Positions 6,280-40,862 are shown, counted from the first letter of the stretch. The stretch is 64,000 nucleotides of DNA from an uncultured Candidatus Saccharibacteria bacterium (GCA_964426755.1 CAYRRR010000002.1:1459-65458), one strand, 5' to 3'. A program made the numbers and translations. Notes: generated by a model from the sequence alone, not told the origin.

Positions 6280-8220
6280 TTATAACAGATGAGTAGGATC
6301 GATATCGTGTCTCCATCCGCTTGGCAGACTGCTAGCAATGGCAAGTAAGGAAGAGCGGTATGGTGATTTTACTACTAGCTGCCATCGGTAATTACCTTTA
6401 TGCTGTTCGTAGAATGAAGGTGTGGGCCCCAGAATAGAGATGTGCTCTCTCGAGAGAAGCTGAGCCTTAAGCGCGGTAGCAGCTCTTTGTGCTGCAGCGC
6501 GACTTTTTCTCGTAACTTCTAATTTGAGGAGGAAGCTAAACGGCGGAAAGCCATGTGTTTTACGGTGTGCGATTTGATCACTATAGAAATCATCCCAATT
6601 TTTATTGATTGCTTGTTGAATAAGTCGGCTATCAGGATCCAGAGTTTGAATGATAATACGACCATGAACGTGGCCACGGCCTACTCGGCCGATAGCTTGA
6701 CTGATTAGCTGGTAGGTGCGTTCCTCGGCTGTAAAATCAGGGAAGGAGAGGCTGGTGTCGGCGTCAGTAACCCCTACTAAACCCAAGCGGGGAATATCGA
6801 AGCCTTTGACCAAAATTTGTGTGCCAATTATGATATCGATTTTTCCGTCTTTAATGCGTTCAACTTGTTTGTCTAGTCGCTCGCTGGTTAGGTTATCACC
6901 GTCAAAACGGGCAATAGTTGCATTTTCAAACAGGTGCCTACATTCTTTCTCGAGTGCCTTTGTACCAGGTCCTAAAAACAATATGTCAGTATACGAGCAT
7001 TCAGGACAAGCGCTCGGCGCATTCGTTTTATATCCGCAGGTGTGACAGCGGAGCAAAAAGGTATCTTCATGGAGTGTAAGAGGCAAGTCACAGTGAGGGC
7101 ACCGTGCTCTCCAGCCACAATTGGGGCACATAATGATTCGGGCGCTTCCACGACGATTAAGAAATAAGAGTGATTGTTGCTTCGCTGTCAATTGTTCTCG
7201 TATGGCTTCAATCAGCGTATTGCTGAGGGCGCTCGATTGAGAGAACTCTTTTTTATCTAACCTGTTAACGATAGAAGTTTCGGTTTGGAGGGAAGCCTGC
7301 GTAATGGCACGTTCTGTTAAGCGAAGGATGGGGATGTCTTTTTGGTTTGCAATATATATATCGCTAATTTGGGGTGTGGCTGATCCAAAAATGACGCGAG
7401 CGTTGTGCAAAAACCCTAAGCGAGAAGCCACCCGCAATGCGTGGTACTGGGGTGCATTATCTTGTTTGTAGCTGTCGTCGTGACACTCGTCAACGATTAT
7501 GCAACCGAGGTTTTTAAACGGAGCAAAGAGTGCAGAACGAGGCCCAATTATAATCTGAGGAAGCGGGTTTTCTAAGATTTCTTGCCAGACGGCACGTCGT
7601 TGGGCGGGAGTTAAGCCGGAATGAATTACTTTAAGAGTTGAGGGACTAAAGGCAACTGATAAATCGGTTAATAAATGTGTTGTGAGTCCAATTTCGGGTA
7701 CCAGAACAAGTCCTGATTTATTGCGTCGTAAAGCATGTTGGAGCAACTCGATATAAATACGTGTTTTGCCGGTTGCGGTGTCACCGTGAAGAATGGTGGT
7801 ACCTTCGTGTTGCAAAATTGTATCGACAGCTTGTTGTTGCTTATTTGTAAGCGAGGGCAGCGGCTGGCTTGATTTTGCCGTATGCGTAATAGCTTGAGTC
7901 CGGGGTTTGGCTGGCCAATTAGATGGTAAAAATAACTGGGAAATACTTCCCGAGCTGGCCGGATAATAGCTGTTCATCCAATCAAGTAATCGCAAGCTTT
8001 CTAACGGCAGCTTACGATCAGCGCTAATTACCGCTTCAATTGGCTTGAGTGATATGCCTTTTGGCGCGGGGGCAGTCCGTTTAATCACACCAATTACATC
8101 ACGACGTCGTAAATTTATGCGGACAATACTACCCGGTAAGAGTACTTCAGGTGATGTATAGGTAAGGGGTGTTTTACCGTGGTAGGCGGTACTTCGTACC
8201 CAAACTTCATAGGTGTGCAT
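6280..8220 (-). CDS. priA: Primosomal protein N' (replication restart helicase)
   Basis: DECH helicase motifs (TGKTRIY, DECHD) and a Cys-rich zinc-binding insert (CPNCGWRARCPHCDLPLTLH...CHTCGY...CPEC). Start chosen at MHTYEVWV; a TATAAT sits 8 nt upstream on the minus strand. Confidence 0.85.
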   Translation of the reverse strand: MHTYEVWVRSTAYHGKTPLTYTSPEVLLPGSIVRINLRRRDVIGVIKRTAPAPKGISLKPIEAVISADRKLPLESLRLLDWMNSYYPASSGSISQLFLPSNWPAKPRTQAITHTAKSSQPLPSLTNKQQQAVDTILQHEGTTILHGDTATGKTRIYIELLQHALRRNKSGLVLVPEIGLTTHLLTDLSVAFSPSTLKVIHSGLTPAQRRAVWQEILENPLPQIIIGPRSALFAPFKNLGCIIVDECHDDSYKQDNAPQYHALRVASRLGFLHNARVIFGSATPQISDIYIANQKDIPILRLTERAITQASLQTETSIVNRLDKKEFSQSSALSNTLIEAIREQLTAKQQSLLFLNRRGSARIIMCPNCGWRARCPHCDLPLTLHEDTFLLRCHTCGYKTNAPSACPECSYTDILFLGPGTKALEKECRHLFENATIARFDGDNLTSERLDKQVERIKDGKIDIIIGTQILVKGFDIPRLGLVGVTDADTSLSFPDFTAEERTYQLISQAIGRVGRGHVHGRIIIQTLDPDSRLIQQAINKNWDDFYSDQIAHRKTHGFPPFSFLLKLEVTRKSRAAAQRAATALKAQLLSREHISILGPTPSFYEQHKGNYRWQLVVKSPYRSSLLAIASSLPSGWRHDIDPTHLL

Positions 8221-23992: not shown

Positions 23993-25651
23993 ATGGATAA
24001 TTTCCGAAGACCAAAACGTGTAGTTAATTCAAGCGACATGGATGGAATTTTACGTTCCAGAATGCGCTATAACCCGGGTAGCTTCTCTTCTCGACGACAA
24101 GTTACTCGTGATTCAAGTTCAGTTCATAAAACAAGCGATGCTCGTATTGGGAATTTTGAACGTAAAGATGGTTTTTTCGCAAGAAAAACCAAGCCGATAA
24201 CGCCCGATGGCCGTGCCTTAGGACGTCAGTCACGCGCAGCTCGCAACCCTATTGATATGACCATAGAAGAAAAACCGTCACGCAAAAACAAGAAAAGTAA
24301 TAAGAGAAGCCTGGACTGGAAGCGTGTATTGAAACGAACGGTAATCGGCGTCTTGCTATTGGGTCTTATTGTGGGCGGTTACCTAGGTGCAAAAGGTTTC
24401 TTGCGTGCCCGACAGATATTCAAGGGCGGGGGTGACGATGTTCTGTGGAGTTGCGAGCCAAACGTAGACTCACTAAAGCAAGAGGGTGATGGCAGGATTA
24501 ACTTTTTATTACTGGGTAAAGGCGGTCCTGAGCAAACTGATAGCCCTGATTTAACGGATACAATTATTGTGGCTAGTGTTGACCCCTGTAATAATGAGGC
24601 CGGTTTATTGAGTATTCCACGCGATCTCGCAGTCAAAATGGAGAGCGGCGAAACAAATAAAATCAATGCCGTATACGCCTTAACAAAAATGGCCTCTAAG
24701 GCGGATGATAAGTCTGACGAAGAGGCAGAGCAAGAGGCTATTGAGGCAATTGAAAATGCCGTAGAAAACGTAGTTGGTTTGCGTATGGATCGCTATATAA
24801 TGCTCGATTTCACGGCCTTTGAGCAGGCAGTTGATGCAGTTGGTGGCATTACCATAGATGTGCAGAAGCCCGTTAGTGAGCAAATGCGCTTAAAAGGTAA
24901 ACAGTATCGATTGGATGTTCCAACCGGTACGCAGGAGTTTGATGGACTTCGAGCTTTGGCGTACACGCGCTCGCGGTATACTAGTGCACGAGGTGATTTT
25001 GATCGGTCGGAACGCCAACGAGAGGTGATTGTCGCACTTCGTGAGAAGGTCTTTAGCCTCGGTACGTTTAGCAACCCTCTTAAAATTTCTCAACTAATGG
25101 ATGCATTTGGTACGCGGGTTCGCACCAATATAAATGGTAATGATGAAATCGGTAAGCTATATACTATTGGCCAAGCAATTGATGCCTCTCGCATTAAGTC
25201 AGTCAGCTTGGTTGATGAGCCGAATGTATTAATCGGCAGCGGCGGGGCAAGCTTAGGATTGGGCTCGGTTCAGGTGCCAAAAGCGGGACTGTATCGCTAC
25301 GATGACATTAGAGCGTTTGTGCGTACAACCTTTGTTGATGGCTTTATAAAGAAAGAAAACGCTCAAATAGCTGTGCTGAACGGAACAACGGTAGCAAATT
25401 TAGCAAAAACAAAGGGCGAGTTGCTAAAATCGTATGGCTACAATGTCAGTGAAGTCGGTGATGCGCCAACTAAGAATAACCCCTCTACGATAATCATTGA
25501 TTTGAAGAAAAAAGACACAAAGCTTACCAAGCGATACCTGGAGCTTCGCTTTAAGACAACCGCAACAACTAAGCTGCCCGAGGGCTATACGCCGCCCGAG
25601 AACGCCGACTTTGTTATAATAGTGGGGCAGAATGAAACGAGTAACCGCTAA
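23993..25651 (+). CDS. LytR-CpsA-Psr (LCP) family cell-envelope phosphotransferase
   Basis: Disordered basic N-terminus, TM helix, LCP core (LLLGKGG...TDTIIVASVD...LLSIPRDLAV) and a C-terminal LytR_C-like region. Confidence 0.82.
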   Translation: MDNFRRPKRVVNSSDMDGILRSRMRYNPGSFSSRRQVTRDSSSVHKTSDARIGNFERKDGFFARKTKPITPDGRALGRQSRAARNPIDMTIEEKPSRKNKKSNKRSLDWKRVLKRTVIGVLLLGLIVGGYLGAKGFLRARQIFKGGGDDVLWSCEPNVDSLKQEGDGRINFLLLGKGGPEQTDSPDLTDTIIVASVDPCNNEAGLLSIPRDLAVKMESGETNKINAVYALTKMASKADDKSDEEAEQEAIEAIENAVENVVGLRMDRYIMLDFTAFEQAVDAVGGITIDVQKPVSEQMRLKGKQYRLDVPTGTQEFDGLRALAYTRSRYTSARGDFDRSERQREVIVALREKVFSLGTFSNPLKISQLMDAFGTRVRTNINGNDEIGKLYTIGQAIDASRIKSVSLVDEPNVLIGSGGASLGLGSVQVPKAGLYRYDDIRAFVRTTFVDGFIKKENAQIAVLNGTTVANLAKTKGELLKSYGYNVSEVGDAPTKNNPSTIIIDLKKKDTKLTKRYLELRFKTTATTKLPEGYTPPENADFVIIVGQNETSNR

Positions 25652-26381
25652 AATTAAGCCCGCCGCGGGCTTTTCATACCTGTTCCACCTTTTTTTAACC
25701 GTACTATTGCCGTTAACCGTTTACGTATTGGTTAGGCTTAATCTGGTGCAGCTCGCAGTTATTTTGGTTATTGTCAGTAAGTGGCGCATGTTTTCGGTGC
25801 GACCACGCCACTGGCTGGCTATAATCAGAGCAAACGCTGCAGACATTATCGTTGGAATGGCTTCGATTATCTTTATGATAAACACTTCAAGCGGTATTAT
25901 GCAGCTGATATGGGCCGTAGCCTATGCTTTGTGGCTCATACTTATAAAGCCGAGTTCAAGTGTTTTTGGCGTGTCGTTACAAGCGTTTATTGCCTTTTTG
26001 TATGGTATAACCGCCATATACCTTGAATGGGGTGCATCAGATGCGCTAGTACTTATGATCATGACTTGGTTAGTTTGTTATTCTGTGGCTCGACACTTTT
26101 TGACAAGCTTTGACGAGCCGCATGCGCCGTTTTTAGCAAATATGTGGGCATTATTTGGTGGCAGCTTGGCGTGGCTGTTGTCCCACTGGTTGCTGTACTA
26201 TCAGGTGGTATCTCAGGTTTCGTTATTATTAGTCGTTTTAGGTTTTGGTGTCGGGACATTATATTATCTAGATAAAACTGATCGGTTATCAGCATTACTG
26301 CGTCGTCAAATTATCTTTATTATGATTGCAATTGTTATAATAACATTAGCGTTTTCTGACTGGGGAGATAAAACAATATAG
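25632..26381 (+). CDS. Hypothetical polytopic membrane protein
   Basis: About 7 hydrophobic helices. Overlaps the end of the LCP gene. Confidence 0.45.
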   Translation: MKRVTAKIKPAAGFSYLFHLFLTVLLPLTVYVLVRLNLVQLAVILVIVSKWRMFSVRPRHWLAIIRANAADIIVGMASIIFMINTSSGIMQLIWAVAYALWLILIKPSSSVFGVSLQAFIAFLYGITAIYLEWGASDALVLMIMTWLVCYSVARHFLTSFDEPHAPFLANMWALFGGSLAWLLSHWLLYYQVVSQVSLLLVVLGFGVGTLYYLDKTDRLSALLRRQIIFIMIAIVIITLAFSDWGDKTI

Positions 26382-27604: not shown

Positions 27605-28420
27605 TTAGTTGGCTTGAAAAATCTGAACCAAGCCCTCTGTTTCAAGTAGTGAATAACCCGCAGCTTTTGCGTAAGCTTTCTGAGTTTGATGCTGCTTGCG
27701 TAGACTTTCCGTCATAACGTATTTGCAACTAGCGAGACCGCTAATTTTTTGCCAAAGTGCTTCATATAATGCTAATCCCCCATTGTCTGCAAATAGGGCA
27801 AGTGAGGGTTCATAGTCAAGCTCTGGCTCAAGATACATGTCTTTGGGCACATAGGGCAGGTTGGCGACGATGATCGAAAAGTGATTTGTTGCAGGCAATA
27901 AGTCAGCTTGGACTAACGAGCAGTCAGCATTAAGATTATTCATATTCTTTTTAGCAACTTTTAGTGCTAACGGGTCGATATCAAGCAGTGTGACATGATT
28001 CTTGGGTAGCTCAAGCTTTAGGGTGATACCTAAAACTCCTGAGCCGCTACCCACATCTACAATGGATTCGTGGGTAAAATTATATTTTTTAGCTAACGTA
28101 ATGAATGCTTCTGATTCTGGCCGAGGAATGAGCACATTCTTATCGACAAAAAAATCTCGACCATAAAATTCAATACGGTTGGTAATGTAGGCAATTGGCT
28201 TGCGGCTCTTTCTTTGTGTCAGCAGCTCATTCAAAGCGGTGTGTTGCGCGATAGTCAGCGGTTTGTCGGTGTGGGCCAAGAGGTGGACGCGATCTGTTTT
28301 GAGGGCAAATTCTAGCAATAATAATGCATCTAATTGGTAAGATGGAATACCAGCGTCTTTTAATTGCTTACGGGCAGCGATCAGCCAATCATTTATCGTC
28401 AGAGATGAGTTGGCGTTCAT
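27605..28420 (-). CDS. prmC: Release factor glutamine N5-methyltransferase PrmC/HemK
   Basis: SAM motif VDVGSGSG and NPPY-type ANLPYVP. Overlaps prfA. Confidence 0.8.
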
Positions 28421-30189: not shown

Positions 30190-30906
30190 ATGGCATCTGT
30201 TGATGTTGATATTAAAAAATTACTTGAAGCTGGGGCTCATTTTGGCCACAAAGCTTCACGTTGGCACCCTAAAATGGCGCCATATATTCACTCAAAGCGT
30301 GAAGGTACCTATATTATTGATCTTACTAAAACCGTAGCGGCTCTACAGGATGCAATGAATTTTGTTGAGAAGTCTGTGGCTGAGGGCAAGCAGGTCTTGG
30401 TTGTAGGTACAAAGCGTCAGGCTCGCGATATTGCTAAAAAACTGGCAGAAGACACTGCTATGCCTTATGTTACCGAACGCTGGCTTGGCGGGATGCTTAC
30501 AAATCAAAACACTATTGGCGGCCGCGTTAAGCATCTGAAAGACCTAGAAGGACGCATGGAATCTGGTCAGCTGGCAGCGAAATATAACAAACTTGAGCTA
30601 CAGCGGTATCAAGAAGAAATTGATCATATGAACAGTCTCTACGGCGGTATTAAGAGTATGGTGGCTAAACCGGGAATAGTCTTTGTATTCGATGTTTTAA
30701 CTGATCAAAATGCGGTTAGAGAGGCTAAAAAGCTGAATATTCCAATTGTCGGCTTGGTTGATACGAATGCGGATCCAAGTGATATTACATATCCGATTCC
30801 TGCCAATGACGACGCTATTAAAACGCTGCAGCTAGTAGCGGATTATGTGAAGCAAGCCATTGAAAACGGCAAAAGCAAACAAAAGAAAACCGAAGATAAG
30901 AAATAG
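30190..30906 (+). CDS. rpsB: Ribosomal protein S2
   Basis: LLEAGAHFGHKASRWHPKM is the canonical uS2 N-terminus. Confidence 0.93.
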   Translation: MASVDVDIKKLLEAGAHFGHKASRWHPKMAPYIHSKREGTYIIDLTKTVAALQDAMNFVEKSVAEGKQVLVVGTKRQARDIAKKLAEDTAMPYVTERWLGGMLTNQNTIGGRVKHLKDLEGRMESGQLAAKYNKLELQRYQEEIDHMNSLYGGIKSMVAKPGIVFVFDVLTDQNAVREAKKLNIPIVGLVDTNADPSDITYPIPANDDAIKTLQLVADYVKQAIENGKSKQKKTEDKK

Positions 30907-30915
30907 GGAGGAAGT

Positions 30916-31506
30916 ATGGACATTGAATCAATTAAGCGCTTGCGTGAATTAACTGGTGTCGGCATTACCGATGCTAAAAAAGCCTTGGTAGAGGCTGACG
31001 GCGACTTTGACAAAGCACTTGAGGCTATGCGTAAAAAAGGCCTGACTAAGGCAGAAAAGCGTGGTGAACGCGAAGCTCGCACCGGCGTAATAGGTACGTA
31101 CAATCATGATGGGCGTATTGGCGTTTTGGTAGAAGTAAACTGTGAGACTGACTTTGTGGCCCGAAACGAAATATTTACTGATTTGGTAAAAGATATCAGC
31201 ATGCACGTTGCAGCTGCCTCACCTCAATACATTAGTGCAGATGACATTCCCGCAGAAGAAACCGACAAAGTCCGGGCAGAGTTTAGCGAAAAGGCTAAGG
31301 CAGAAGGTAAGCCGGCCGATATGATTGATAAGATTGTCGATGGTATGCTCACAAAACATTTTGCAGAACGATGCTTGCTCGATCAGCCATTTGTCAAAAA
31401 TCCTGACCAGACCGTTGGTGAGCTTGTAAAAGAGCACATTGCCAAACTTGGCGAGAACATTGTGGTGCGCCGTATAAGTCGCATGCAACTTGGCGAAGTA
31501 GAGTAA
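30916..31506 (+). CDS. tsf: Elongation factor Ts
   Basis: IKRLRELTGVGITDAKKAL (UBA-like N-terminus). Follows rpsB. Confidence 0.9.
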   Translation: MDIESIKRLRELTGVGITDAKKALVEADGDFDKALEAMRKKGLTKAEKRGEREARTGVIGTYNHDGRIGVLVEVNCETDFVARNEIFTDLVKDISMHVAAASPQYISADDIPAEETDKVRAEFSEKAKAEGKPADMIDKIVDGMLTKHFAERCLLDQPFVKNPDQTVGELVKEHIAKLGENIVVRRISRMQLGEVE

Positions 31507-31524: not shown

Positions 31525-32307
31525 GTGATGAGTAGAGGTAAATGGATAGCTACACCAGAAGTCTATGACGCAACTGGGGCAGAAATAACTATTGGCGACA
31601 TTGGTTTGCCGCATGGCCTGGACTCAGAACGGATTCAGTTTAATGTAGATGCGCTCCGACGCGGCGTAATAAGCTGGGGTGGGTATGCCGCCTTGGTTTT
31701 GGGGTCGCGAGCCGGGGAGCGAGACAAGATTGCGCCGCACGTATCAGGTGTGAATGAGGATGGCTCAATAACCGGCGTTTCGTCTCGAACAGAACGAGCC
31801 GAACTGGCGACGAGTTCATCAGATCAGAACACATTATTAGAGAGATTGAATGTTCGCAACGGCACACTTTATGTAAAGCTAAACTCTACTGTCTTAAATG
31901 ATAGAGCAACGTTAGAGGAGCAATTTGACCCTGCTTTTAAAGCTAGGCAGCTTAATCGCGCATTGAAGAAACCAATAATACATGCAGTGACGAAGCATAG
32001 CACCAGTGGTAGACTTAGGGTGTCTAATCCATTTGGTGTGGCCCTTGACGGGATGCTTCTCAGTTCATCTGTAATGAGTTATGTAGAGCGTGATCCAAGC
32101 CTTTTTATAAGTCTACTTTTATTGAATATGACAGGGCAAAAGGGTGTTATACCACTCATGAACAAAAACAGCTATGGTGTTCCTTATGGTGACACCGTGA
32201 CAGATCCAGTGTTTGTTTCAATGAGGCCAACGCGAGCAATCATGGCTGCTGGCACGCTAGCATCACAGCGACTTGTGCGGGCTACGCCTCTTAAGTCTGA
32301 ATCATAA
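31525..32307 (+). CDS. Hypothetical protein occupying the usual pyrH slot
   Basis: 260-aa ORF between tsf and frr. It lacks the UMP-kinase/amino-acid-kinase glycine-rich motifs and no family is recognised. Confidence 0.45.
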   Translation: MMSRGKWIATPEVYDATGAEITIGDIGLPHGLDSERIQFNVDALRRGVISWGGYAALVLGSRAGERDKIAPHVSGVNEDGSITGVSSRTERAELATSSSDQNTLLERLNVRNGTLYVKLNSTVLNDRATLEEQFDPAFKARQLNRALKKPIIHAVTKHSTSGRLRVSNPFGVALDGMLLSSSVMSYVERDPSLFISLLLLNMTGQKGVIPLMNKNSYGVPYGDTVTDPVFVSMRPTRAIMAAGTLASQRLVRATPLKSES

Positions 32308-32342: not shown

Positions 32343-32906
32343 ATGGATATTAATCAAGTGGTTGAAACTACTAAAGAAAAGCTTGAAGCTACAGTTAAAC
32401 GCTTTGAGGAAGAGCTAAAAAAACTCCGAACAGGTCGTGCAAGTGCAGCTATGCTTGACGGTGTTATGGTTGAAGCGTATGGCTCTCAAATGCCACTCAA
32501 TCAGGTGGCAAACGTGACTGCTCCCGAGGCGCAATTACTTCAGATTACACCATTCGACCCCAATAATTTAGCGGCAATTAGTGCAGCGATTCGCGACAAT
32601 CAATCGCTTGGACTGAACCCGGCTGATGATGGCCGCGTTGTGCGAGTGCCAATTCCGCCGCTCACAGAAGAACGACGACGTGAAATCACGAAACAAGTTG
32701 GTGTCAAATTAGAAGAAACTATGATCGTCATGCGCGGTATCAGACATGAAGCGCTCGATGTAATTGATGATGCGAAAAAAAATAAATCTCTTGGTGAAGA
32801 TGAAGCCAAGCGCTTGTCGCAGCAAGTTGAAGATACAATGAATAAAACTAAAGTAGCAGCTGAGGCTGTTGCCAAAAATAAAGAACAAGAAATTATGACT
32901 GTCTAG
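32343..32906 (+). CDS. frr: Ribosome recycling factor
   Basis: RRF pattern (LKKLRTGRASAAMLDGV...; R-E-I-T-K). Confidence 0.92.
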   Translation: MDINQVVETTKEKLEATVKRFEEELKKLRTGRASAAMLDGVMVEAYGSQMPLNQVANVTAPEAQLLQITPFDPNNLAAISAAIRDNQSLGLNPADDGRVVRVPIPPLTEERRREITKQVGVKLEETMIVMRGIRHEALDVIDDAKKNKSLGEDEAKRLSQQVEDTMNKTKVAAEAVAKNKEQEIMTV

Positions 32907-32940: not shown

Positions 32941-33636
32941 ATGATGAAAGTACAGAACATCCCAGATCATGTAGGTATAATCCTGGACGGAAACCGACGT
33001 TGGGCAAAAGCGCGAGGTTTGACTACGCTTGAAGGGCATCGCAAGGGCGCAGAAGTTTTTCGGGAGGTTGCCTTGGCTGCATTTGATCGCGGCGTTTCGT
33101 ATCTTAGCGCTTATATTTTTTCCACAGATAACTGGAATCGCTCAAATGAAGAGGTTTCGTATCTGATGAAGTTAGTTATTAAAGCAGTCGAACGTTATCT
33201 TGATGAATTCCATAAACGAGGCATTAAGATACTTATTATTGGTAGGCGCGACCAAGTGAGCAAAGAAGTAATAAATGCAGTTGAGAAAACAGAATTAAAG
33301 ACTAAAGATAATAAAAACGGCTGCCTGGTGCTCTGTTTTAACTATGGCGGTCATGAAGAGATTGCCGATGCGGTTAATAAAATATTGGCTGAAAATAAGC
33401 ACATAACCAGAATAGAGCCCGCCTTAATTGAACAAAACTTGTATGCACCTGAAGTGCCGTCTATTGATCTGCTGATAAGGACTTCAGGCGAACAAAGAAC
33501 CAGCGGCTTTATGTTGTGGCGATCTGATTATGCCGAACTGATCTTTAGTGATTTGCTGTGGCCTGATTATAGCGTAAGCGCACTTGATGAGGCGTTAACA
33601 GAGTATAATAAAAGACAAAGAAGGTTTGGAGGTTAA
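32941..33636 (+). CDS. uppS: Undecaprenyl diphosphate synthase
   Basis: HVGIILDGNRRWA and GRRDQ motifs. Confidence 0.9.
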   Translation: MMKVQNIPDHVGIILDGNRRWAKARGLTTLEGHRKGAEVFREVALAAFDRGVSYLSAYIFSTDNWNRSNEEVSYLMKLVIKAVERYLDEFHKRGIKILIIGRRDQVSKEVINAVEKTELKTKDNKNGCLVLCFNYGGHEEIADAVNKILAENKHITRIEPALIEQNLYAPEVPSIDLLIRTSGEQRTSGFMLWRSDYAELIFSDLLWPDYSVSALDEALTEYNKRQRRFGG

Positions 33637-34764
33637 GTGTCTGTTATTTTGATCATTATAGGTATTTTATTATTTATAACGCTTGTTGTTTTGCATGAGT
33701 TTGGTCATTTTGTGCTTGCTCGCCGTAATGGGGTTGAGGTTGAAGAGTTTGGCATAGGCTTTCCGCCGAGAGCATGGGGTAAAAAATTAAAAAGCGGTTT
33801 ACTTTTCACAATAAACTGGCTGCCGCTCGGAGGCTTTGTGCGCTTAAAAGGAGAGCATGACGCCAACAAAGAGAAGGGCAGTTATGGTGCTGCTAGCCTG
33901 TGGGCAAAGACAAAAATAATTATTGCCGGCGTGGTAGTAAATGCATTGCTAGCTGTTTTTATATTTAGCGTGCTGGCATTAGTGGGAATACCAAAGATTC
34001 TGGACAATCAGTTTACGGTTGCGAGCGATACAAAAATAATTAGCCAAAAAGTACTGGTGGGCTTAGTTGATGATGATTCGCCGGCGGCTCAAGCCGGTCT
34101 GCAGCCTCGTGATGAACTACAGTCTATTGGAAACAGTCCGGATGATTCTATGCAAGTCGCTAGTGCCGACAGTTTGCCAGAGATTACAAAGCAGTTTGCT
34201 GGCCAAACTGTATCTATAGTGTACAAGCGTGACGGTGAGCCACACACGACCAAAGCTACTCTTCGCGATAAACAAGAAGTCGAAGCTAGCAAACAAAGCA
34301 ATGAGCCGCTCGGCTATCTTGGAGTGGTGCCGACTGAATTAACTCTGCAGAGGTCTACATGGTCTGCCCCAATTGTTGGCGTTGGCTTAACAAAACAGGT
34401 GGCTACTTTAACCTATAAAGGTCTTGGTAATATTGTCACGAGTTTAGTGAGGGGTGATGCAAAACAGGCCTCTAGCCAAGTGTCAGGGCCAGTGGGTGTT
34501 TTTGTGCTACTACGAGACGTTAGTGAACTGGGCTTTCAATTTATTTTAATGATTATTGCCATCATTTCGTTGACACTAGCCATCATGAACTCGTTGCCGA
34601 TCCCGGCACTTGATGGAGGACGCTTATTCGTAACCTATGTATACCGACTTTTGAATAAGCCACTCACCGAGAAGGCAGAAGATATGATTCACGGCATAGG
34701 TTTTATGGTGCTCATCAGCCTCTTTTTGCTTATTACTATTGTTGACGTTGGCAGGTTCTTCTAG
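33637..34764 (+). CDS. rseP: Site-2 protease RseP-like (M50) with PDZ
   Basis: HEFGHF zinc motif, internal PDZ and LDGG. GTG start overlapping the uppS stop. Confidence 0.85.
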   Translation: MSVILIIIGILLFITLVVLHEFGHFVLARRNGVEVEEFGIGFPPRAWGKKLKSGLLFTINWLPLGGFVRLKGEHDANKEKGSYGAASLWAKTKIIIAGVVVNALLAVFIFSVLALVGIPKILDNQFTVASDTKIISQKVLVGLVDDDSPAAQAGLQPRDELQSIGNSPDDSMQVASADSLPEITKQFAGQTVSIVYKRDGEPHTTKATLRDKQEVEASKQSNEPLGYLGVVPTELTLQRSTWSAPIVGVGLTKQVATLTYKGLGNIVTSLVRGDAKQASSQVSGPVGVFVLLRDVSELGFQFILMIIAIISLTLAIMNSLPIPALDGGRLFVTYVYRLLNKPLTEKAEDMIHGIGFMVLISLFLLITIVDVGRFF

Positions 34765-35664: not shown

Positions 35665-35676
35665 AAATTGGAGAAA

Positions 35677-36039
35677 ATGATGAGTCAAAATAACAAGATT
35701 GAAGAGTGGGGCGTGGGTGAGTATGCTTGGGCAGAATCTGTCGACGGGATTACGGTGGATGGTTGGCAACTCGAGACAGAAGTTGAGCTTCATGCTCATC
35801 GCTTGGCACGAAGCGTTTGTAGTGAGCAAATAAGCGTGAAAGATTTATGGAGAGGTGTTAGATTTGCAAATGCTCTTGATAGAGAAGCGGTTGAAGTATA
35901 CGGCGCAGATTTATCAGATGGCGAGCAGCAAAAAGAGCGCATTGCGCGTCGGCTCATGCATCATGCCGGCCGGCAGGCATTGTTACTAATCAAAGACGAG
36001 ACTAGGCGCGTTATTTACCGAATTAGCCATAAAATTTAG
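35677..36039 (+). CDS. Hypothetical protein
   Basis: 120-aa ORF with a GGAG RBS. No motif recognised. Confidence 0.4.
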   Translation: MMSQNNKIEEWGVGEYAWAESVDGITVDGWQLETEVELHAHRLARSVCSEQISVKDLWRGVRFANALDREAVEVYGADLSDGEQQKERIARRLMHHAGRQALLLIKDETRRVIYRISHKI

Positions 36040-37878: not shown

Positions 37879-39441
37879 ATGTCTGACAATTCAAATAAAA
37901 GATATTGGCTGACAACCGTTGTCGAGCAAATAGCCAAAGAATACCCAAATGGTACGCTTGTCGTGGCAAGTGGTATTTCTCCGTCTGCTAGTTATCATAT
38001 CGGCCATTTTCGAGAAGTATTGACTGCTGATGGTCTAGCATGGGGACTGCGAAGGCTTGGGCGAGAAGTTCGCCACATCCACTTTGTTGATAATTTTGAT
38101 CCATTACGAAAGCGCTATCATTTTTTGCCCAAATCGTACGACCAGTATGTCGGCTGGCCTATTTGTCTTGTTCCAGCTCCAGATGGTAGTGAGAAGAGCT
38201 ATGCTACGTACTTTAGTGAAGAGTTTCAGAAGCGTGCTTCTGAGATGGGTATTGATATGGAAGTTGTTTACAGCTACGAAGACCAATACAAAAGTGGCAA
38301 AATGGTGCCGTATATTGAAGCAGCCTTGGCGCACGGTCCAGAAATTCGAGATATTTTTAAACGAGTAGCTAATAGAGATTTGTCAGATGATTGGATGCCG
38401 ATCCAAATACTATCAGACAATAAAAGCTTTAACGAATGGCGCTATAAGGCCATTGATACAAGTAAAAAGACTATCGCTTACATTGACAAAAACGGTCAAG
38501 AAGGAGAGGTTAGCTATCAAGACGGTCGGGTAAAACTTAACTGGCGGCTTGATTGGCCGGCGCGCTGGGCATTATGGAATGTAGATGTTGAACCATATGG
38601 CAAAGAGCATGCGACAAAGGGTGGAAGTTACGATACGGGCGCTGAATTTGTAAAAACAGTTTTTAAGGCAAAAGCGCCGTTTCCGTTGCCTTACGACACG
38701 ATTAATATGGCGGGTGACAATAAAAAAATGAGCAGCTCGCTAGGGAACGTAGTAACGCCGGCTGAAGCTCTTGAAATTATGCCGCCAGAAGTTTTACGTT
38801 ATTTCGTATATCGCAATTTACCAAGGCGAGTGCTTTATTTTGATAGTGGCCTCGGTCTATACAACCTGATTGATGAATTCAGCAAAGTTGAAGAAGCTGT
38901 AGAGTCGGGCAATACGCATGAGTTTGCGGAAGCGTACAATGTATCAACTGCTATTTCATCACAGCGAACGATAACAAGCATACCATTTAACCATTTGGTA
39001 AGCGTATTCCAGGCAGCTCAAGGTAATGAAGAGGAAATAGTAGCTATTTTGAAGCGAACCGGGTACGGTGACGTTGTCTCGACTCACGCAGAGGTGCTCA
39101 AGCGTGAAATCCCCTATGTTGCCAACTGGCTAGAGAAGTACGCGCCTGATAGCGTAAAATTTGTTGTTCAAGATGCGCTGCCAAAGGTTGAACTGAGCGA
39201 AGCGCAGAAACAATTTGCGCAAATACTTGCTGACAAGCTCGTTGCTATGCAAGATATCGACGGTCAAACAATGCATGAGACAATATACGCAGCCAAAGAA
39301 GAGGCTGACCTGCAGCCGGGTGAGGCATTTAAGGCGCTGTATCGTTTAATTCTAGACAAAGATTCTGGCCCAAAGGCCGGTTGGTTTTTGGCCTCGCTTG
39401 ATAAAGGATGGCTGATTAAACGTCTTAAGCAAGAGGTATAA
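37879..39441 (+). CDS. lysK: Class I lysyl-tRNA synthetase
   Basis: HIGH as SASYHIGHFRE and KMSKS as KMSSSLGN. The overall class I LysRS architecture is distinct from class II LysS. Confidence 0.82.
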   Translation: MSDNSNKRYWLTTVVEQIAKEYPNGTLVVASGISPSASYHIGHFREVLTADGLAWGLRRLGREVRHIHFVDNFDPLRKRYHFLPKSYDQYVGWPICLVPAPDGSEKSYATYFSEEFQKRASEMGIDMEVVYSYEDQYKSGKMVPYIEAALAHGPEIRDIFKRVANRDLSDDWMPIQILSDNKSFNEWRYKAIDTSKKTIAYIDKNGQEGEVSYQDGRVKLNWRLDWPARWALWNVDVEPYGKEHATKGGSYDTGAEFVKTVFKAKAPFPLPYDTINMAGDNKKMSSSLGNVVTPAEALEIMPPEVLRYFVYRNLPRRVLYFDSGLGLYNLIDEFSKVEEAVESGNTHEFAEAYNVSTAISSQRTITSIPFNHLVSVFQAAQGNEEEIVAILKRTGYGDVVSTHAEVLKREIPYVANWLEKYAPDSVKFVVQDALPKVELSEAQKQFAQILADKLVAMQDIDGQTMHETIYAAKEEADLQPGEAFKALYRLILDKDSGPKAGWFLASLDKGWLIKRLKQEV

Positions 39442-40052: not shown

Positions 40053-40862
40053 ATGAAAAAGTTTACGAGCCTTCTTAGGACAAAACAAAAAGTCAATTTT
40101 GAAAGATTAAATAAATGGAATATTGGCCTGGCAATACTCCACGCCGTGCAAGGTATTTTGATTCTAGTGTTAAGCCGGGGTGCAAACACAGCGGTAAGCA
40201 CCAGCTATTTAAGTATAGATCCGCTGCTGAGTCGTGATGGCCAGCCGGTTCTGGTGCCAGCCTCATCCAATTTGTTTGATTTAAATCTCGGTTACTTGGT
40301 GGCGGCGTTTTTCTTTATGTCGACAATTGCCCACACCGTTATTGCAACCATATATAGAAAGCGGTATGAAGATGGGTTGAAGAAGGGTATAAATCGGGTG
40401 CGGTGGATAGAGTATGCCTTTAGTGCCAGCACCATGATGGTGGCAATTGCAGTTTTGAGTGGCGTATACGATCTTTCAAGTTTACTAATGATATTTAGCC
40501 TGGTGGCAGTTATGAATCTGATGGGACTTGTCATGGAGCTTTGGAATCAAACTACAAAACAAACTAACTGGTTGAGTTTTGTGATAGGCTGTTTTGCTGG
40601 CATAGTACCGTGGATTGTGTTTGCGGTTTACGTATGGGGTGCCAATGTGTATGGGGCGGGCCAGATTCCAGCCTTTGTGTACTGGATTTACCTTAGCATT
40701 TTCATATTCTTTAATATTTTTGCAATTAATATGTATCTTCAATACAAGAAAAAGGGCAAATGGGCAGATTATCTGTACGGCGAAAAAATTTATATGATAT
40801 TAAGCCTTGTCGCGAAGTCTGCACTGGCCTGGCAGGTGTTTGCCGGAACCTTGAGGCCATAA
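40053..40862 (+). CDS. Heliorhodopsin (retinal-binding 7-TM photoreceptor)
   Basis: Strong pattern match to the heliorhodopsin family across the protein: RWIEYAFSAS (counterion E), IGCFAGIVPWI, YLQYKKKGKW and SLVAKSALAWQVFAGTL (Schiff-base K). Conserved His in TM1/TM2. Confidence 0.85.
   Translation: MKKFTSLLRTKQKVNFERLNKWNIGLAILHAVQGILILVLSRGANTAVSTSYLSIDPLLSRDGQPVLVPASSNLFDLNLGYLVAAFFFMSTIAHTVIATIYRKRYEDGLKKGINRVRWIEYAFSASTMMVAIAVLSGVYDLSSLLMIFSLVAVMNLMGLVMELWNQTTKQTNWLSFVIGCFAGIVPWIVFAVYVWGANVYGAGQIPAFVYWIYLSIFIFFNIFAINMYLQYKKKGKWADYLYGEKIYMILSLVAKSALAWQVFAGTLRP

Follow-up and report, generated by a model that had tools for sequence, protein, structure and literature searches.

The rpsB-tsf-frr cluster in Saccharibacteria

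The gene order rpsB-tsf-pyrH-frr is near-universal in bacteria. Among the Saccharibacteria, a related arrangement has been described for Southlakia epibionticum ML1, in which rpsB (0202) and tsf (0203) are followed by a gene for a hypothetical protein (0204), frr (0205), uppS (0206) and a gene for a site-2 protease (0207) (PMC10633639). The annotation tables of this species, which are both sequence- and structure-based (Tables S1/S2), contain no UMP kinase, uridylate kinase or pyrH, and their sole match to PF00696 / AA_kinase is the carbamate kinase SEML1_0801 (PMC10633639). Cmk, Gmk, Tmk, Ndk and an Adk-like NMP kinase are all listed (PMC10633639). By Tn-seq, Cmk and Gmk are non-essential in this organism, for which the tables show neither PyrH nor de novo nucleotide synthesis (PMC10633639). 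SEML1_0204, the gene in the tsf-frr slot, was itself scored as non-essential at each of the three Tn-seq time points (PMC10633639). Saccharibacteria are also documented to be naturally competent and to undergo double-crossover recombination (PMC10633639). No explicit statement on pyrH in this lineage was found in the literature.

The window analysed here is a stretch of 64,000 nucleotides from an uncultured Candidatus Saccharibacteria bacterium (GCA_964426755.1, CAYRRR010000002.1:1459-65458), and its gene order is mirrored by that of S. epibionticum 0202-0207. All genes of the cluster lie on the + strand. They comprise rpsB, encoding ribosomal protein S2 (30190..30906; PF00318, E 8.6e-81); tsf, encoding a short EF-Ts of 196 aa (30916..31506; PF00889, E 1.5e-37); frr, encoding the ribosome recycling factor (32343..32906; PF01765, E 3.8e-53); uppS, encoding undecaprenyl diphosphate synthase (32941..33636; PF01255, E 7.4e-76); and a gene for an rseP-like M50 site-2 protease with a PDZ domain (33637..34764; PF02163, E 4.5e-49). 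The original prediction, made from the DNA alone, had described this flanking synteny as kept, and Pfam confirms rpsB, tsf, frr, uppS and the rseP-like gene at E-values of 1e-37 to 1e-81. Between tsf and frr lies the gene under study, here termed X. A CAAX-type protease gene and then proS follow 3′ of the M50 protease gene, proS being taken from Pfam annotation precomputed for the identical contig.

Several other features of the window are of separate interest. The M50 site-2 protease gene stands directly 3′ of uppS (32941-34764, + strand) and cdsA and dxr are absent, unlike in E. coli, in keeping with CPR bacteria generally lacking lipid biosynthesis. An ORF of 123 aa with no Pfam match is located between the CAAX protease gene and proS (35668-36039, + strand). 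Another, of 249 aa and also lacking a Pfam match, lies upstream of a gene for an HtrA-like protease (25632-26381, + strand); a related locus (L090) has a 243-aa gene with no Pfam match at the corresponding place, the two being likened by position only. The prfA and prmC genes overlap by 32 nt (28389-28420, - strand), an arrangement that recurs in L090. The usual bacterial lysyl-tRNA synthetase belongs to class II, and the window encodes one of the class I type (37879-39441, + strand; PF01921, E 9.5e-96). A heliorhodopsin gene encoding 269 aa (40053-40862, + strand; PF18761, E 8.8e-94) suggests a light-exposed, probably aquatic Saccharibacterium. Searches of the whole window (1-64000) for tRNA genes and for Rfam families at the gathering threshold found none.

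The flanking genes assign the window to Saccharibacteria (CPR/Patescibacteria). The closest related locus (L003) belongs to the uncultured Saccharibacteria MAG CAZNZL010000001, whose rpsB, tsf and frr products are 90-91% identical in amino acid sequence to those of the window. This sister has a clean 67-bp spacer between tsf and frr and no X. Over 77 loci, the spacer runs from near zero to 3 kb: it measures 150 bp or less in 34, 151-400 bp in six, 401-700 bp in 20 and more than 700 bp, up to 3 kb, in 17, and thus exceeds 400 bp in 37/77. The 67 longest spacer ORFs from these 77 loci fall into 55 clusters. Pfam scans of ten of the longest gave eight without a match, one with a trypsin-like peptidase domain and one with an RNA polymerase alpha-CTD-like domain; PyrH was not among them. 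A search with E. coli PyrH through the window and approximately 1 Mb of related loci returned nothing at E<=10. The tsf-frr junction is a hypervariable slot in Saccharibacteria and not a pyrH position. It had at the outset been called the ‘position normally held by pyrH’, a description that does not hold in this lineage, where the 77 loci are empty or carry unrelated ORFs and none carries PyrH.

Genes of the X family are themselves sparse, and none was detected by tblastn or by the family HMM in the best 80 species-representative Saccharibacteria loci (0/80). In a neighbour-joining tree of tsf and frr, the nearest neighbour of each of the five X-bearing lineages has no X. A second orphan family was also seen in the slot, encoded on the minus strand with proteins of 244-295 aa and carried by one clade (L008, L017, L019, L021 and L046). 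The two members scanned (L008 and L017) gave no Pfam match.

Because the 77 loci are without pyrH and the S. epibionticum tables are without a UMP kinase, the loss of pyrH seems to characterise the wider Saccharibacteria lineage rather than this genome in particular. The basis for such a general trait is 77 species representatives at the level of the locus and the annotation tables of one cultured species at the level of the genome. The original prediction that pyrH had been displaced or lost was correct in that the gene is missing at this locus, but the loss is apparently lineage-wide rather than specific to the genome. The missing pyrH would then be no peculiarity of this bacterium, and a general saccharibacterial trait is suggested.

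Gene X and its protein family

An uninterrupted ORF occupies positions 31525-32307 of the + strand and encodes 260 aa when counted from the GTG at 31525. The likely start is the ATG at 31528, one codon 3′ of that GTG, because the homologues align from the ATG (MSRGKW vs MSKE.W). Gene X is accordingly placed at 31528..32307, encoding a 259-aa protein of an uncharacterised Saccharibacteria family, from the ORF call, the homologues and the AlphaFold2 (AF2) model together. An identical X protein was called by gene callers on two independent SRA assemblies (runs SRR7082982 and SRR7082971). The other two + frames across X are filled with stops, and the antisense ORFs in this region are short shadows. 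The protein is close in size to a PyrH (241 aa in E. coli), as had been pointed out in the original prediction.

Only 21 nt separate the tsf stop codon from the X ATG, and 35 nt separate the X stop codon from frr. A clear GGGAG Shine-Dalgarno sequence precedes frr. The region upstream of X in the window yielded neither a Shine-Dalgarno sequence nor a promoter-like site, and no terminator-like site was found on the + strand from rpsB to frr. X is probably co-transcribed with rpsB-tsf-frr, since the genes share a strand, are separated by short spacers and have no + strand terminator-like site between them. The GC content of X is 47.1% against 43.7% for the window, and its first ~450 bp reach ~51%. 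The slight GC enrichment remarked on earlier is thus real but trivial, as tsf (46.2%), htrA (46.6%) and stretches of frr are comparable. GC3 is 0.41 in X and 0.34-0.42 in the neighbours. A foreign origin of X by GC content was considered and rejected, given that both GC and GC3 fall within the neighbours' range.

With X alone as the query (phmmer), 1.84 billion representatives were scanned exhaustively with HMMER for homologues. The family so defined holds 56 cluster representatives at E<=1e-3, of which 15 reach E<=1e-30, with the best homologue at E 1.7e-55 and 44% identity. Nearly all homologues are 255-270 aa in length and align end to end. A word-indexed homology search recovered X itself only, its profile version added just two more sequences, and the narrower family alignment, when used in the related-locus search, led to two short metagenome loci. 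Wherever the lineage of the host could be judged, it was Saccharibacteria. No relatives of X were found on IMG/VR viral contigs.

X belongs to the family alignment A1, whose profile it matches at 299 bits (E about 8e-90). Wherever the 12 closest family members agree without exception (alignment A2), X has the same residue. The match to the family profile is full-length and includes WGGY, RNGxLxxxWN, DPxxRAxQLD and RPTRA...LVRA. Among members the N-terminal half is well conserved and carries GLPxGxD, LQLN, WGGY, RNGxLxxxWN and DPxxRAxQLDxxIR...HN; a variable hydrophobic stretch and a conserved C-terminal DPxF...RPTRAxxAxGxLAxxRLVRA come after it. In the N-terminal domain, W6, P10, P28, D32, N39, G51, G52, G63, G79, R110, G112 and N119 are invariant or nearly so, and R236 is invariant within the C-terminal motif. 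A second subfamily has xxDR in place of RPTRA. Searches of Pfam, NCBIfam and PDB sequences with X gave no match, nor did the PADLOC and PHROGs profiles, which agrees with the earlier remark that X resembles no recognised family. Family members compared with Pfam, PHROGs and PADLOC, and the family profile compared with PDB sequences, produced chance-level matches only, among them a single PHROG match across 12 members. X is a genuine protein-coding gene from a small, fast-evolving and uncharacterised family.

The AF2 model of X, built from 30 family sequences, has a pLDDT of 92.9 and a pTM of 0.85. A homologue that is 24% identical to X (P0033) was modelled from 47 sequences with a pLDDT of 91.4 and a pTM of 0.85, and the two models show an identical order of secondary-structure elements. 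In the predicted architecture, a beta-rich alpha/beta domain of ~130 aa leads into a 24-residue helix and a helical hairpin, and the chain ends with a helix and a strand. The N-terminal alpha/beta domain, as modelled, covers aa 1-132 (31528..31923, + strand) and holds the best-conserved motifs. The helical region follows at aa 135-216 (31930..32175, + strand), where AF2 and hydropathy indicate a long conserved helix bearing RAxQLDxxIR...HN and then the hydrophobic hairpin. The C-terminal motif spans aa 226-252 (32203..32283, + strand) in both alignments and in the model. Helices are predicted at residues 135-158, 168-186, 190-216 and 234-246, and a strand at 250-252. Structure prediction followed by a fold search, the check suggested in the original prediction, thus returned a confident model and no kinase or other fold match in PDB or BFVD. 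Foldseek against PDB gave nothing significant for either model (best E 1.9 for X and 0.48 for P0033, TM about 0.1-0.2), and the best E against BFVD was 1.5, also not significant.

The hairpin at aa 168-216 is hydrophobic and variable in sequence across the family. In every member, hydropathy peaks at about residues 170-210, the 19-residue Kyte-Doolittle maximum being 1.0-2.1. On the model, the hairpin might serve as an anchor, either membrane-associated or re-entrant. Against a membrane hairpin, these maxima straddle the usual transmembrane threshold and the GRAVY of the whole protein falls slightly below zero. In the AF2 model the hairpin forms part of a helical bundle, which could equally be a soluble core. 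Membrane association of X is therefore borderline.

The family is found between tsf and frr in five Saccharibacteria lineages. These are represented by the window itself, P0004 (L085-087), P0005 (L089), P0006 (L090/091, GCA_039915295.1) and P0013 (L093). Other members lie outside the slot: one adjoins NrdR (L088), two adjoin pth (L083 78-710 and L101 765-1403, both on the - strand), and the remainder are placed between pheT and miaA (L098), 3′ of an RNase T-like gene (L097), between a MutS-like gene and a histidine phosphatase gene (L095), or in a further context unrelated to the slot (L092). The two pth-adjacent genes differ in orientation, one being divergent and one convergent, and their adjacency could be a coincidence or a weak link to translation genes. 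One pth-adjacent protein (P0026, 237 aa), encoded on a short metagenome contig, was considered as the Southlakia slot protein and rejected on account of that location. No partner gene is conserved across the contexts of the family. Slot and non-slot members are intermingled in the family tree. X is 32-43% identical across lineages whose tsf is 72-87% identical, and therefore evolves much faster than its neighbours.

In several X-family genes, -35/-10-like boxes end 6-9 nt short of the ATG, and a Shine-Dalgarno sequence is missing (L085 ~2120-2161; L097 ~7620-7652; L083 ~955-992; L098 ~2720-2750). Such genes lie both inside and outside the slot, and X in the window has no such box. The sequence pattern suggests leaderless transcripts for the genes that carry it.

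The possible function of X and the probable loss of pyrH

X is not a divergent UMP kinase. The PF00696 and TIGR02075 profiles found nothing in X, with no Pfam match at E<=1 and no relevant NCBIfam match at E<=10, and 30 X-family members gave no match to AA_kinase. A sensitive search was seen from the start as the route by which a divergent UMP kinase might come to light. None did: hhalign of the A1 family profile with E. coli PyrH gave a probability of 0.1%, and the Foldseek results from PDB, which holds many PyrH structures, include neither amino-acid-kinase nor P-loop kinases. Direct reading of X shows no Walker-A motif (GxxxxGK[ST]), and with no Pfam or Foldseek match either, X does not fall among the P-loop NMP kinases of the Cmk/Adk/Gmk/Tmk type. 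The lack of amino-acid-kinase motifs noted in the original prediction was thus borne out at the levels of motif, profile and fold. A frameshifted or degraded pyrH in other frames was also rejected, as those frames are stop-filled and tblastn and phmmer with E. coli PyrH found nothing at E<=10. X does sit between tsf and frr, as PyrH would; position alone does not define the PyrH family.

A non-orthologous enzyme could still have been recruited to the vacated pyrH position and supply UDP in place of PyrH. This would account for the position, strand and approximate size of X within a rpsB-tsf-pyrH-frr cluster, for the presence of the family at that position in five lineages, for the conservation of several Arg-, Asp- and Gly-rich motifs, and for the failure to find PyrH in the window or related loci. 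It is very improbable, however, for X has no sequence, profile or fold similarity to kinases of the amino-acid-kinase or P-loop folds and no Walker-A motif. It is absent from a 90%-identical sister and from 80/80 of the best species representatives, which are pyrH-less at the locus too. It diverges far faster than its housekeeping neighbours, its variable hydrophobic hairpin would be unusual in a soluble NMP kinase, and family members also occur in unrelated contexts. In S. epibionticum, moreover, the tables are without PyrH and the slot gene is non-essential (PMC10633639). The ‘lineage-specific replacement’ offered in the original prediction is accordingly not supported, given a sister without the gene, the fast evolution of X and the unrelated contexts of its family. 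That X is instead a spurious or decaying ORF, a non-functional remnant, is scarcely credible: no recognisable Shine-Dalgarno sequence or promoter stands directly upstream and X forms a singleton cluster at 90% identity, but it is full length relative to all homologues, retains every invariant residue of alignment A2, has a high-confidence AF2 model and is a clean ORF with stops in the other frames.

Among the remaining readings, a single-gene conflict or defence module is the least unlikely, though it too is doubtful. X would then be an abortive-infection-type membrane protein or a host-interaction effector located in a core-gene hotspot, in keeping with its patchy distribution, its rapid divergence, the hypervariable slot between conserved genes and the hydrophobic hairpin. 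The -10-like boxes near the ATG of family genes elsewhere, with no Shine-Dalgarno sequence, suggest autonomous and possibly leaderless expression, as such a module might have. The family has no PADLOC or PHROGs match and no IMG/VR relatives, however, no mobile-element or defence genes are seen nearby and no toxin-like fold was detected. Somewhat less probable is that X serves translation as an accessory factor with a functional tie to EF-Ts, RRF or Pth, for example in ribosome rescue, hibernation or membrane tethering. In five lineages the gene stands within rpsB-tsf-frr and is probably transcribed with it, two members adjoin pth and one lies between pheT and miaA; but much of the content of such tiny genomes is translation genes, so that chance neighbours are expected. 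The NrdR, RNase T and MutS-like/histidine phosphatase contexts have no relation to translation, patchy presence and fast evolution would be atypical of such a factor, and Foldseek showed no fold similarity to ribosome-binding proteins in PDB. Pure vertical inheritance with loss leaves the recurrence at the exact pyrH position in five lineages striking, and a functional link with the operon could exist. A stronger form of this argument is given little credence: the family would be a protein class of new structure, and function rather than history would explain why it recurs where pyrH once stood. It could then be an analogous pyrimidine-nucleotide kinase or carrier, or a new membrane-tethered partner of the EF-Ts/RRF translation-recycling machinery, specific to epibiotic Saccharibacteria.

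X is most likely a dispensable accessory gene. The overall reading, to which a probability of roughly 65% is assigned, is that X is a real, non-PyrH gene of a Saccharibacteria family, that it occupies a hypervariable slot in a dispensable accessory role, and that the ancestral pyrH has been lost. Under this reading, pyrH was probably lost early from the slot in the wider Saccharibacteria lineage, and its descendants would now carry nothing, X-family genes or unrelated orphan ORFs in its place. X-family genes would repeatedly have dropped out of the slot or entered it by exchange. Such exchange may plausibly have proceeded by homologous recombination across the conserved flanks, because Saccharibacteria are naturally competent.

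The model tentatively pictures the X protein as a cytoplasmic alpha/beta domain, anchored to the membrane, or resting on it, via the hydrophobic hairpin, with the conserved basic C-terminal helix perhaps packing back on the alpha/beta domain. Its role might, speculatively, be a dispensable and lineage-variable one in the envelope, in host interaction or in conflict, and not in core nucleotide metabolism. UMP would presumably be phosphorylated by retained P-loop NMP kinases (Cmk or Adk-like), or else this step would presumably be bypassed via imported or RNA-derived nucleotides. UDP is thus most plausibly supplied by retained Cmk/NMP kinases or by nucleotide import, and not by X.

Orphan families are common in CPR genomes. 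What is new here is a confidently foldable family of ~260 aa without detectable relatives or fold match. The newness is confined to that family and fold, and no new biological system is demonstrated.

Comparison with known systems

The likeness of X to PyrH (PF00696 / TIGR02075) consists of its location between tsf and frr, its matching strand and its comparable length (259 aa vs 241 aa in E. coli). It differs in having no sequence or profile similarity to PyrH, and no PyrH structure appears among the Foldseek results. The modelled fold is a beta-rich N-terminal domain joined to an all-helical C-terminal half, rather than the alternating alpha/beta sandwich of the amino-acid kinases. X is also not conserved even between sister genomes.

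SEML1_0204 of S. epibionticum likewise occupies the tsf-frr slot, encodes 235 aa and has no Pfam or ECOD assignment, and it is likened to X by position and size (PMC10633639). Its non-essentiality in Tn-seq fits an accessory role (PMC10633639). It is about 25 aa shorter than typical X-family members and may well be unrelated to X, since the slot holds many unrelated ORFs elsewhere.

The order of elements in X is superficially similar to that of CorA/ZntB, in which a cytoplasmic alpha/beta domain is followed by a long stalk helix and a C-terminal hairpin. Both Foldseek lists include CorA chains, with scores no better than noise (E 0.8-3.8, TM ~0.12-0.14, probability <=0.04). X is much shorter than CorA, lacks the GMN motif and has a conserved extra helix after the hairpin. 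With neither a GMN motif nor a significant fold match, X does not belong to the CorA family.

At the level of the locus, the comparison is with hypervariable islets. The tsf-frr site differs from these in having no integrase, repeats or tRNA, and exchange would occur via its homologous flanks. The junction nevertheless resembles such islets in its presence/absence polymorphism and in the unrelated cargo that it carries between close lineages.
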